From a virus (lineage: Duplodnaviria; Heunggongvirae; Uroviricota; Caudoviricetes), in the IMG/VR virus record IMGVR_UViG_2645727640_000047, positions 1-6,492 of that record: a stretch of DNA of 6,492 nucleotides. One strand, 5' to 3'. The position numbers and the translations under genes are program-made. Under the pieces are notes generated by a model, which saw only the letters and a program-made list of their open reading frames with translations, did not search any database and was not told the DNA's origin. This document shows, piece after piece, positions 2,420 through 6,492 of this stretch; position 1 is the stretch's first letter, and each line of letters starts with the position of its first letter.

Positions 2420-2592
2420 TTTACTGTTTTTGACGAGCTTATTGTTTGCAACTCAATGAAAAATAAAGGCTAATAAGCCAAATGCTATAAATGATAGTTA
2501 TCTATCATGTGGAGTAGATTGGTCAGGCAAATAAGCTCTTGTCAGCGGCAGGGCGTTCTGCCGATAACCGTAACCGAAGATGATAACTGACA

Positions 2593-2913
2593 ATGGGTAA
2601 AACGAACGACTGGCTGGACTTTGATCAACTGGCGGAAGAAAAAGTTCGCGACGCGCTAAAACCGCCATCTATGTATAAAGTGATATTAGTCAATGATGAT
2701 TACACTCCGATGGAGTTTGTTATTGACGTGTTACAAAAATTCTTTTCTTATGATGTAGAACGTGCAACGCAATTGATGCTCGCTGTTCACTACCAGGGGA
2801 AGGCCATTTGCGGAGTCTTTACCGCCGAGGTTGCAGAAACCAAAGTGGCGATGGTGAACAAGTACGCGAGGGAGAATGAGCATCCATTGCTGTGTACGCT
2901 AGAAAAAGCCTGA
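2593..2913 (+). CDS. clpS: ATP-dependent Clp protease adaptor ClpS, 106 aa
   Basis: The translation [51 protein letters not shown]... matches E. coli ClpS as recalled; there is a 30-bp gap to clpA, as in K-12. Confidence 0.96.
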
Positions 2914-2943
2914 ATGCAGGCATAAAAATTGGGGGAGGTGCCT

Positions 2944-5220
2944 ATGCTCAATCAAGAACTGGAACTCAGTTTAAATATGGCTTTCGCCAGAGCGCGCGAG
3001 CACCGTCATGAGTTTATGACCGTCGAGCACTTGTTACTGGCGCTGCTCAGTAACCCATCTGCCCGGGAGGCGCTGGAAGCGTGTTCTGTGGATTTGGTTG
3101 CGCTCCGTCAGGAACTGGAAGCCTTTATTGAACAAACCACACCCGTTCTGCCTGCCAGTGAAGAGGAGCGCGACACACAGCCGACGCTGAGTTTTCAGCG
3201 TGTACTGCAACGTGCGGTCTTCCATGTCCAATCCTCCGGTCGCAATGAGGTAACCGGTGCAAACGTTCTGGTCGCTATCTTTAGCGAACAGGAGTCGCAG
3301 GCGGCATATCTGTTGCGTAAACATGAAGTCAGCCGTCTCGATGTGGTGAACTTTATCTCTCATGGCACGCGTAAAGACGAGCCGACACAGTCTTCTGATC
3401 CTGGCAGCCAGCCAAACAGCGAAGAACAAGCTGGTGGGGAGGAACGTATGGAGAATTTCACGACGAACCTGAATCAGCTTGCGCGCGTGGGCGGAATCGA
3501 CCCACTGATTGGTCGTGAGAAGGAGCTGGAGCGTGCTATTCAGGTTCTCTGCCGTCGCCGTAAAAACAACCCGCTGCTGGTGGGGGAATCTGGTGTCGGT
3601 AAAACCGCGATTGCGGAAGGTCTTGCCTGGCGAATTGTTCAGGGCGATGTGCCGGAAGTGATGGCTGACTGTACGATTTACTCTCTCGATATCGGTTCTC
3701 TGTTAGCGGGCACTAAATATCGCGGCGACTTTGAAAAACGTTTTAAAGCGTTGCTCAAGCAGCTGGAGCAGGACACTAACAGCATCCTGTTTATTGATGA
3801 GATCCACACCATTATCGGTGCGGGGGCAGCGTCTGGTGGCCAGGTCGATGCGGCTAACCTGATCAAACCGTTGCTCTCCAGCGGTAAAATTCGCGTAATT
3901 GGTTCGACAACCTATCAGGAGTTCAGCAACATTTTCGAGAAAGACCGTGCTCTGGCGCGTCGCTTCCAGAAAATTGATATTACTGAACCGTCGATCGAAG
4001 AAACTGTTCAAATCATCAATGGCCTGAAACCGAAGTATGAAGCGCACCACGACGTGCGTTATACCGCAAAAGCGGTGCGTGCAGCGGTAGAGCTGGCGGT
4101 GAAATACATTAACGATCGTCATCTGCCGGATAAAGCCATTGACGTTATCGACGAAGCGGGCGCTCGCGCACGCCTGATGCCGGTAAGCAAACGCAAGAAA
4201 ACCGTTAATGTGGCGGATATTGAGTCCGTGGTGGCCCGTATTGCGCGCATTCCAGAGAAGAGTGTTTCTCAGAGTGACCGCGATACCCTGAAAAACCTCG
4301 GCGATCGCCTGAAAATGCTGGTCTTCGGTCAGGATAAAGCCATTGAGGCGCTGACTGAAGCCATTAAGATGGCGCGTGCAGGTTTAGGTCACGAACATAA
4401 ACCGGTTGGTTCGTTCCTGTTTGCCGGCCCTACCGGGGTCGGGAAAACAGAGGTGACGGTACAGCTTTCGAAAGCGTTGGGCATTGAGCTGCTGCGCTTT
4501 GATATGTCCGAGTATATGGAACGCCATACCGTCAGCCGTCTGATTGGTGCGCCTCCGGGATACGTTGGTTTTGATCAGGGAGGTTTGCTGACTGATGCGG
4601 TCATCAAGCATCCACATGCGGTGCTGTTGCTGGACGAAATCGAGAAAGCGCATCCGGACGTGTTCAATATTCTGTTGCAGGTGATGGACAACGGTACGCT
4701 GACCGATAACAACGGACGCAAAGCGGACTTCCGTAACGTGGTGCTGGTGATGACCACCAACGCCGGGGTACGTGAAACTGAGCGTAAATCCATTGGTCTT
4801 ATCCACCAGGATAACAGCACCGATGCGATGGAGGAGATCAAGAAGATCTTTACACCGGAATTCCGTAACCGTCTCGACAACATTATCTGGTTTGATCATC
4901 TGTCAACCGACGTGATCCATCAGGTGGTGGATAAATTCATCGTCGAGTTGCAGGTTCAGCTGGATCAGAAAGGTGTTTCTCTGGAAGTGAGCCAGGAAGC
5001 GCGTAACTGGCTGGCCGAGAAAGGTTACGACCGGGCAATGGGCGCACGTCCGATGGCGCGTGTCATCCAGGACAACCTGAAAAAACCGCTCGCCAACGAA
5101 CTGCTGTTTGGTTCGCTGGTGGACGGCGGTCAGGTCACCGTCGCGCTGGATAAAGAGAAAAATGAGCTGACTTACGGATTCCAGAGTGCACAAAAGCACA
5201 AGGCGGAAGCAGCGCATTAA
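2944..5220 (+). CDS. clpA: ATP-dependent Clp protease ATP-binding subunit ClpA, 758 aa
   Basis: The translation begins [35 protein letters not shown] and has two AAA+ modules with Walker A motifs ([16 protein letters not shown]). A strong Shine-Dalgarno GGGGGAGG (2931-2938) lies 5 nt before ATG 2944; the track's TTG start at 2929 is not used. Confidence 0.96.
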
Positions 5221-5244
5221 TCTGATTGTTAGGTAGGTTGGTCA

Positions 5245-5280
5245 AGTCCGTAATCTCGAAAGAGGTTACGGACTTTTTGT
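5245..5280 (+). terminator. Rho-independent terminator of clpA (about 13-bp stem, GAAA tetraloop, T-run)
   Basis: AGTCCGTAATCTC (5245-5257), loop GAAA (5258-5261), GAGGTTACGGACT (5262-5274) with one G-U wobble, then TTTTTGTTT. Confidence 0.8.
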
Positions 5281-5432
5281 TTATGGGGTGGAGGAGGTTC
5301 AGACCCTTTTTTTAATGATGATGGTAAGTTGTTGATAATTAGTGCTGCGGGAAGGTAAGGATAAAAAAGGGTGCTGCAGGAGAATGGGATGGTTTTGCTT
5401 TATTAACAACGGGCTAAACGTGTAGTATTTGA

Positions 5433-5520
5433 GTTCACTGCCATACAGGCAGCTTAGAAATCGACGGGGTGCGGTAAAACCTTTGCGAACGCGTTCACTG
5501 CCGTACAGACAGATAAAATG
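5433..5520 (+). CRISPR. Orphan type I-F CRISPR mini-array: 2 repeats, 1 spacer, no cas genes in the window
   Basis: Repeat 1 GTTCACTGCCATACAGGCAGCTTAGAAA (5433-5460); 32-bp spacer TCGACGGGGTGCGGTAAAACCTTTGCGAACGC (5461-5492); degenerate terminal repeat GTTCACTGCCGTACAGACAGATAAAATG (5493-5520). The repeat matches the 28-bp Ypest/I-F consensus GTTCACTGCCGTACAGGCAGCTTAGAAA with one mismatch. An AT-rich leader-like region lies at 5290-5432. The clpA-infA position is the known E. coli CRISPR3/4 (I-F) locus. Confidence 0.85.
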
Positions 5521-5522
5521 CG

Positions 5523-5550
5523 AAAAAAAAGCTCGCACTTTCGTACGAGC
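5523..5550 (-). terminator. Rho-independent terminator of serW (8-bp stem, GAAA tetraloop, U8)
   Basis: On the minus strand the RNA reads GCUCGUAC-GAAA-GUGCGAGC followed by UUUUUUUU; it lies 14 nt downstream of the tRNA 3' end. Confidence 0.8.
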
Positions 5551-5563
5551 TCTTCTTTAAATA

Positions 5564-5651
5564 TGGCGGTGAGGGGGGGATTCGAACCCCCGATACGTTG
5601 CCGTATACACACTTTCCAGGCGTGCTCCTTCAGCCACTCGGACACCTCACC
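5564..5651 (-). tRNA. serW: tRNA-Ser (anticodon GGA), 88 nt including the encoded CCA
   Basis: The reverse complement reads GGTGAGGTGTCCGAGTGGCTGAAGGAGCACGCCTGGAAAGTGTGTATACGGCAACGTATCGGGGGTTCGAATCCCCCCCTCACCGCCA, with the anticodon loop CUGGAAA, a long variable arm and the T-loop GGTTCGAATCC. Confidence 0.95.
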
Positions 5652-5722: not shown

Positions 5723-5840
5723 AGAAGAATTTTAATGATAATTATTGTTTGCTCATACTGTAAACAAGTTGTGCAGTATATCTACATCGAGACAAGTTAC
5801 GGACTTATACTTCCAAAGTACTTCATACATATCACAAAAT

Positions 5841-5904: not shown

Positions 5905-6126
<222 letters not shown>

Positions 6127-6492
6127 ATCCTCTGGGGTATCACTACCGTAATTTGAACCGGCAAGATAATGCCGAAGTTCTGTAAATAAGTAAAGATTTG
6201 CGCGCTAAATCGCAACAAACAGGTTCGGCACATTACTCCGAAAACACACGGCTAAGCCGCACCAAAAGCGCAACGTATAAGGGAGCGGTGAGATAAACGA
6301 TGGGCGTTACCTGACGCGAAAAATTCCTTATCGGCAGCGGGGTAATGAGCGTAACCAACTCTGCGACCGCAATTATAACACTCTGGGGAGAAATGTGCCG
6401 AAAACATTCATTCTTGTGGTGAAAACAAGGGAAGGTGCGAATAAGCGGGGAAATACTTCTCGGCTGACTCAGTCATTTCATTTCTTCATGTT

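Follow-up and report, generated by a model that had tools for sequence, protein, structure and literature searches.

The window, by which we mean the whole 6,492-nt stretch of DNA analysed here, harbours a type I-F CRISPR mini-array at 5433-5520, which consists of two repeats and one spacer and lies between clpA and serW (Table 1). A sequence-only reading had placed two I-F repeats and one 32-bp spacer at this site and had reported the window to be free of cas genes; the coordinates turned out to be exact, and no cas gene was found in the window or, more specifically, between clpA and infA.

Table 1. Positions of the array, its parts and its neighbours in the window.
Feature	Position	Strand	Description
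clpA	ends at 5220		upstream neighbour of the array
Intrinsic terminator hairpin of clpA	5244-5275	+	14-pair stem followed by a T-run
Array leader	5276-5432	+	CRISPR4.1 leader by homology to cas-positive E. coli
Repeat 1	5433-5460	+	28 nt, GTTCACTGCCATACAGGCAGCTTAGAAA; 27/28 identical to the E. coli I-F consensus
Predicted Cas6f hairpin of repeat 1	5438-5452		
Spacer	5461-5492	+	32 nt, TCGACGGGGTGCGGTAAAACCTTTGCGAACGC
Repeat 2 (terminal)	5493-5520	+	GTTCACTGCCGTACAGACAGATAAAATG; 19/20 identical to the consensus over the first 20 nt
First part of repeat 2	5493-5512		would give the 3' handle and hairpin of the crRNA; the 8 nt that follow are the deletion junction
Hairpin terminating serW	5523-5558	−	terminator-like site
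serW, tRNA-Ser(GGA)	5564-5651	−	ARAGORN, Rfam tRNA; right-hand boundary of the locus
infA	5905-6123	−	beyond serW

The terminator of clpA insulates the array from clpA read-through. Upstream of repeat 1 lies an AT-rich leader, recognised by its homology to the CRISPR4.1 leader of the cas-positive strains UTI89 and ETEC-2264. The homology to these two strains extends without a break over clpS, clpA and the leader and reaches into repeat 1 (98-99% identity over window 2487-5466), and from this collinearity it follows that the leader is the CRISPR4.1 leader, identical by descent. Its repeat-proximal ~100 nt are almost invariant in nine strains of divergent lineages. A consensus scan of the plus strand of the leader found no sigma-70 promoter. 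On the other side of the array, the hairpin that terminates serW probably serves the plus strand as well, as terminator of the array transcript. In the serW gene itself, one stem pair is swapped in a compensatory manner relative to the cas-positive strains, a pair read as belonging to the T-stem (GAGGGGGGGATTCGAACCCCCGAT in the window, GAGGCGGGGATTCGAACCCCGGAT in UTI89 and ETEC-2264).

As for the ends of the window, positions 1-2486 (junction at about 2487-2508) are not the usual macB-cspD neighbourhood: an island of ~8 kb with an integrase gene has inserted between yljB and clpS, and these 2.5 kb are its right end. Besides the integrase, its products are an HTH regulator, an Icd-like protein, a primase, an SSB and a DUF1441 protein, and the direct repeat ATGATAGTTAT(T/C)TATCAT lies on both sides of it; the full 2.6 kb of its end occur in only 2 of 5,426 genomes. 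Judging from the gene content, it looks like a P4-like satellite or a PICI. At the right end (6430-6492), the window ceases to resemble other E. coli at a point 22 nt inside aat, counted from the 3' end of this gene, which has probably lost a few codons. The final 63 nt of the window (GGAAGGTGCGAATAAGCGGGG...) occur 8,170 times in 1,728 genomes, on chromosomes as well as on plasmids, and such a number of copies marks them as the end of an insertion sequence, which we take to be the terminal repeat of IS5.

The repeats were compared with the 28-nt E. coli I-F consensus GTTCACTGCCGTACAGGCAGCTTAGAAA. The sole change in repeat 1, G11A, falls in the hairpin loop, and this repeat matches the Rfam family CRISPR-DR4 (RF01317), which corresponds to Kunin repeat cluster 4, with a score of 45.8 bits (gathering score 35, E = 1.8e-8). 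With up to three mismatches allowed, the consensus occurs once in the window, the expectation from 200 shuffles being 0.00; together with the Rfam score, this means that the array is not a chance match. The distance from repeat start to repeat start is 60 nt, a period canonical for I-F arrays (PMC3506596). In the terminal repeat, the only change within the first 20 nt is G17A, located in the stem, and the last 8 nt are degenerate. A degenerate 3' part is usual for terminal CRISPR repeats.

A typical I-F repeat has a stable 5-bp stem and a 5-nt loop, features needed for binding and cleavage by Cas6f. Repeat 1 folds into the expected hairpin and also contains the 8-nt sequence of the crRNA 5' handle, CUUAGAAA; the predicted hairpin energy is -7.8 kcal/mol, against -8.6 kcal/mol for the consensus. 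In repeat 2, G17A turns the C9-G17 pair into a C-A mismatch, so that four of the five stem pairs remain and the predicted energy is -1.4 instead of -8.6 kcal/mol. Since the binding of Cas6f is sensitive to helix geometry (PMC5965381), the 3' end of the crRNA may form, or be held, poorly. A search of the literature found no work on the tolerance of Cas6f to a stem mismatch of this kind; a Csy4 deep-learning preprint treats the flanking context, not stem mutations. An open reading frame of 79 aa with a GTG start on the minus strand (5299-5538) was rejected as a gene because it covers the repeats, the strain-variable spacer and the leader. In a few genomes, this frame is annotated as a 'hypothetical protein', and such RefSeq annotations lie over the spacer.

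To identify the target, the 32-nt spacer was compared by blastn with 5,426 complete E. coli genomes. It matched 1,802 of them, most in unannotated DNA at the same clpA-serW locus, and the 31/32 matches fall in a gene annotated as 'cas3f: type I-F CRISPR-associated helicase Cas3f'. In cas3f of ETEC-2264 the match is perfect (32/32, L003 9101-9132), and this allele is present in ~39-40 genomes; in cas3f of UTI89, an allele present in ~201 genomes, it is 31/32 (L001 12001-12032), the one mismatch lying at spacer position 12 as a synonymous TGC/TGT change. The second, ETEC-2264-type allele is 92.6% identical over 230 nt. Both protospacers are directly preceded by CC at the 5' side (flanks TTGCC in ETEC-2264 and TGGCC in UTI89). 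The E. coli I-F system uses GG as its PAM, defined on the target strand and leader-proximal to the protospacer (PMC3506596); on the strand with the sense of the spacer, this corresponds to CC on the 5' side, as in both flanks. Furthermore, every sixth position is kept from base-pairing by the Cas7f thumbs in the Csy complex (bioRxiv 10.1101/453720); position 12 is thus unpaired, and the UTI89-type cas3f should be targeted as well as the perfect match.

The spacer has the sense of the cas3f coding strand, and its protospacer covers codons 425-435, starting on the first base of codon 425. It encodes STGCGKTFAN in the context MA-STGCGKTFAN-ARIMY, i.e. helicase motif I (Walker A). According to Pfam, the start of the DEAD-type helicase domain lies at residues 423-491 of Cas3f and covers the target peptide, which is also retained in solved Cas2/3 structures (aligned segment NMASTGRGKTFANARIMY in one of PDB 23dj/9x2f). 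These results show that the spacer is a copy of the I-F cas3f coding strand at the codons of helicase motif I. The translation of spacer frame 1 as STGCGKTFAN in the sequence-only reading is therefore the frame read in cas3f, and the cas3-type helicase that it had suspected behind a P-loop signature is the gene matched in both ETEC-2264 and UTI89, with the CC that it had suggested looking for in front of either protospacer.

In UTI89 and ETEC-2264 the order of the complete locus is clpA - CRISPR4.1 - cas1f - cas3f - csy1 - csy2 - csy3 - cas6f - serW - CRISPR4.2 - infA. From the window, ~8.6 kb of the cas-positive strains (cas1f, cas3f, csy1-3 and cas6f) are absent, and the homology resumes exactly at the serW terminator hairpin, downstream of cas6f. 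Consequently, the terminal repeat is joined directly to the A-run and hairpin that follow cas6f, and the cas operon is missing. It is this absence of an adjacent I-F cas operon that makes the array an 'orphan', and its membership of the repeat family is unaffected by it. The CRISPR4.2 array with its leader, about 0.7-1.0 kb in cas-positive strains, is absent from the window as well. Its place between serW and infA is taken by ~110 nt of unrelated sequence (5733-5840), in which 5787-5806 repeats the right half of the clpA terminator (5256-5275) with 17 of 20 nt identical. The I-F systems decay in cas-positive strains, too: csy2 of UTI89 is annotated as a pseudogene with an internal stop (L001 15596-16519), and cas3f of STEC299 is interrupted by two elements, one of the IS110 family and one IS100 (L005 6656-13018).

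The clpA-serW spacer regions of eight other strains were then aligned with the window. All the aligned orphan arrays have a common leader and the same terminal junction (...CAGATAAAATGCGAAAAAAAAGC), and they differ in their spacers. When the orphan spacers were mapped against two cas operons, one of the UTI89 and one of the ETEC-2264 type, the spacer of K-12 and O157:H7 matched cas1f (1-3 mismatches) and that of isolate 362 matched csy3 (4 mismatches), and cas3f was matched by the spacers of strain 4/4 (0-1 mismatches), N50 (1-3), T16R and 2 HS-C (2-5) and the window (0-1). All six distinct orphan-array spacers sampled from other strains match an I-F cas gene (cas1f, csy3 and four times cas3f) with 0-5 mismatches, and for every spacer mapped, at least one of the alleles has CC in the PAM position. 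In a control set of 51 spacers, taken from three cas-positive strains, none matched the cas operon with up to 8 mismatches. The orphan array of K-12 and O157:H7 has the same 343-nt intergenic architecture, leader and terminal repeat as that of the window, including G17A in K-12; its spacer, TTCAC[A/T]GGTAACATACTCCACCCGCCCACCAT, is directed at cas1f, not cas3f, and seed position 4 is among its 1-3 mismatches.

Some orphan arrays contain more than one such spacer. In WP2-S18-ESBL-07 (L011, about 364-554), the anti-cas3f spacer of the window, in the leader-proximal position, is followed by the K-12 anti-cas1f spacer, and 2 HS-C (L014) has three anti-cas spacers, the last with a 4-nt deletion. Given these multi-spacer arrays, those with one spacer, such as the array of the window, could have arisen by reduction of longer anti-cas arrays. 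G17A is present in the terminal repeat of K-12, WP2-S18 and 2 HS-C, and the stem of this repeat is intact in 4/4, O157:H7, isolate 362, N50 and T16R. In T16R (L012, about 497-631; also in H162 and H174), ~180 nt are inserted between the terminal repeat and serW. This insertion is annotated as 'RtT sRNA', starts with a partial copy of the serW 3' end and looks like a local duplication or repeat expansion.

Across the 5,426 genomes, the spacer of the window was found in array context in 1,560 (28.7%), among which it is essentially invariant, and the exact 88-nt array including G11A of repeat 1 in about 29. Because most of the 1,560 arrays differ from the window by one base only, the loop change of repeat 1, G17A is the common state of the arrays with this spacer. 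Among the matches listed, roughly three quarters of these arrays have one spacer and roughly a quarter continue into a further full repeat. The K-12-type anti-cas1f spacer is carried by about 2,000 genomes and the anti-cas3f spacer of strain 4/4 by about 670. The cas3f gene is present in 241 of 5,426 genomes (4.4%), and none was found on E. coli plasmids. As 1,560 and 241, together with one spurious 18-nt match, add up to the total of 1,802, no genome has both the array and cas3f; this exclusivity is partly automatic, because the chromosomal locus exists in two alternative states, with this array or with the cas operon.

To see how widely the target peptide is distributed, one genome per species was searched for DNA that would translate to STGCGKTFAN, the serine codon being TCN. 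The peptide is encoded identically in at least 120 other assemblies or stretches, and the matches listed include Yersinia, Photorhabdus, Serratia, Erwinia, Aeromonas and Photobacterium. Among these, the closest at the nucleotide level are from Escherichia: E. coli SCPM-O-B-8794 and E. ruysiae have one mismatch to the spacer each, at positions 30 and 27, respectively, and E. whittamii has three. In the more distant genera among the matches listed, 3-9 positions differ, 2-5 of which are paired. The alanine codon preceding the protospacer is GCG, GCT or GCA instead of GCC in many distant genera, and the PAM is consequently absent from many of their targets; among the matches listed, CC is kept in the Y. 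pestis gene and in a minority of the other distant genera. Since its nearest matches are from Escherichia, the spacer derives from an Escherichia I-F cas3f, specifically from one of the most constrained segments of that gene.

One may ask whether the choice of target has itself kept the spacer in the population. The spacer starts at codon position 1, so its unpaired positions 6, 12, 18, 24 and 30 are all wobble bases, and among the matches listed the Escherichia cas3f alleles differ from it by single third-base changes at positions 12, 30 and 27. In addition, the Walker A codons of Cas3 may not permit any change at the protein level. That the spacer persists in ~29% of E. coli genomes for this reason, being nearly escape-proof and so broad in range that the array could, at the least, prime against I-F systems from genera such as Yersinia (Y. 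pestis), Photorhabdus and Aeromonas, nevertheless seems quite unlikely to us. A general rule that anti-cas spacers always start on codon position 1 was considered and discarded: the cas3f spacer of strain 4/4 does so and two others do not. The register of the window's spacer is thus probably a coincidence.

From these results, we consider it highly probable that the window contains an orphan I-F 'CRISPR4.1-2' anti-cas3f array that serves as a guard against incoming I-F systems. About its identity as an anti-cas3f orphan I-F array there is hardly any doubt. The array of the window is likely to be still effective as a guard, its transcription, processing, interference and priming being taken from the literature or deduced. 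In the mechanism published for orphan arrays of this class, which we extend by analogy to the array of the window, the array would be transcribed from its leader and nothing would happen as long as Cas proteins are absent. Were a complete I-F cas operon to enter the cell on a plasmid or by recombination, its Cas6f would cut the resident transcript into a crRNA that would pair with the cas3f template strand. By the crRNA anatomy of PMC5965381, this crRNA would begin with the 5' handle CUUAGAAA from repeat 1, continue with the 32-nt spacer and end in a 3' hairpin, for which repeat 2 would give its first 20 nt. The Csy complex would load this anti-cas3f crRNA and bind the incoming cas3f next to the CC PAM, whereupon Cas2/3 would degrade the carrier DNA and prime the acquisition of further spacers. 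As a result, the I-F system could not establish itself in the cell, and an operon integrated in the chromosome would lead to lethal targeting.

Two reviews (PMC8616872 and PMC5972030) state that E. coli without cas-F genes invariably retains a short I-F array and that almost all orphan-array spacers match cas-F genes. They also relate, from Almendros et al. 2016, that native orphan arrays are constitutively expressed, interfere with plasmids bearing the full set of cas-F genes and trigger primed adaptation. The sequence-only reading had connected the array with the anti-cas orphan arrays of Almendros et al. 2016, in agreement with the reviews, which come from the laboratory that discovered these arrays (PMC8616872 section 20; PMC5972030). 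A full-text literature search for the spacer sequence itself gave no match.

The array might instead be an inert fossil, one that records a self-targeting event at the time when the I-F cas genes were lost and no longer yields a usable crRNA in this lineage. The G17A-weakened hairpin of repeat 2, the rare loop change in repeat 1, the lack of a predicted promoter and the absence of cas genes would all suit such a relic, and the one terminal junction common to all orphan arrays fits a single old deletion that was then inherited. However, neither the leader nor repeat 1 nor the 32-nt spacer is damaged, the spacer shows next to no variation over 1,560 genomes, the part of the leader next to the repeat has hardly changed between divergent lineages, and repeat 2 keeps four of its five stem pairs; moreover, native orphan arrays at this locus are reported to be expressed and to interfere (PMC8616872 and PMC5972030). 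We therefore regard an inert fossil as unlikely. Another conceivable role is that of a small regulatory or antisense RNA independent of Cas proteins, acting for example on the convergent serW terminator region, with the CRISPR features being incidental. It is true that the array converges on serW and has the terminator hairpin in common with it, and the few RefSeq annotations of a 'hypothetical protein' over the spacer could be read in the same direction. Yet Rfam gives no family besides CRISPR-DR4 and tRNA, and the 131-nt fold is not unusual (z = -1.45). Furthermore, the spacers at this array position are wholly different between lineages and all aimed at cas genes, which fits a guide function and not a fixed sRNA, and makes such a role highly improbable.

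As regards the target, the GxGKT motif is common to many NTPases, and the spacer could in principle have been taken from, or be directed against, a phage or plasmid with a P-loop helicase, so that its likeness to cas3 would come from the shared Walker A motif only; a general P-loop NTPase target had been the fallback of the sequence-only reading, which had proposed a BLASTN search of cas genes, phages and plasmids. The search yielded the cas3f match, and neither a phage target nor a genuine plasmid target: none of 50,697 phage records matched, even at E <= 10. Seven full-length matches to E. coli 'plasmids' were obtained, including records of 0.7-4.9 Mb, and were discarded; the one inspected, a 73-kb 'plasmid' record, carries clpS-clpA-infA and is thus chromosomal DNA filed as a plasmid. 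The remaining plasmid matches (25 nt, 88% identity, E about 9) were dismissed as chance. Set against a cas3f match of 32/32 at the nucleotide level with a CC PAM, a phage or plasmid target retains hardly any probability at all.

The class to which we assign the anti-cas3f array was described in 2010 and explained experimentally in 2016, and the finding is therefore already known. To that description the present analysis adds the exact protospacer in two cas3f alleles, a mismatch to the common allele that falls on an unpaired position, an updated census, and a terminal-repeat mutation that weakens the hairpin. The locus is a clear example, found in nature, of a CRISPR array directed at CRISPR-Cas, in which an incoming I-F system would cut its own cas3. 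Such an anti-cas guide helps to explain why I-F cas genes are found in only ~4% of complete E. coli genomes and the array in almost all of them. For genome scans, it follows that an orphan mini-array is not necessarily junk, and that its spacer content can be decoded exactly.

In the I-F system of Pectobacterium atrosepticum, a resident spacer that matches DNA of the same cell is reportedly toxic, the conflict being resolved by loss of the target. There the target is a pathogenicity island, whereas the spacer of the window is aimed at the CRISPR-Cas machinery, and the array survives as a guard; by analogy, self-targeting resolved by loss of the target is presumed to be the origin of the cas loss at this locus. 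The mini-arrays of viruses and plasmids, made of one spacer and a truncated repeat (PMC8616872 section 16), resemble the array of the window in their minimal architecture and in borrowing Cas proteins from elsewhere. They reside, however, on mobile elements and target competitors (PMC8616872), while the array of the window is chromosomal and targets incoming cas genes. With the complete E. coli I-F systems of LF82, UTI89 and ETEC-2264, it has in common the chromosomal site, the leader, the repeat and the GG/CC PAM (PMC3506596); these systems possess the cas operon and CRISPR4.2 with its leader, which the window lacks, and of 51 spacers from three cas-positive strains none matches a cas gene. 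The closest likeness is to the orphan CRISPR4.1-2 anti-cas arrays (Diez-Villasenor et al. 2010; Almendros et al. 2016, Nat Microbiol 1:16081), as described in PMC8616872 and PMC5972030: they occupy the same clpA-serW-infA locus, have the same repeat family and leader, carry one or a few spacers without cas-F genes, and match an I-F cas gene with the correct PAM. As far as those accounts go, nothing essential sets the array of the window apart, its repeat 1 being distinguished by the rare G11A loop change. It is a member of this class, and by analogy with the class it would be transcribed and would interfere.
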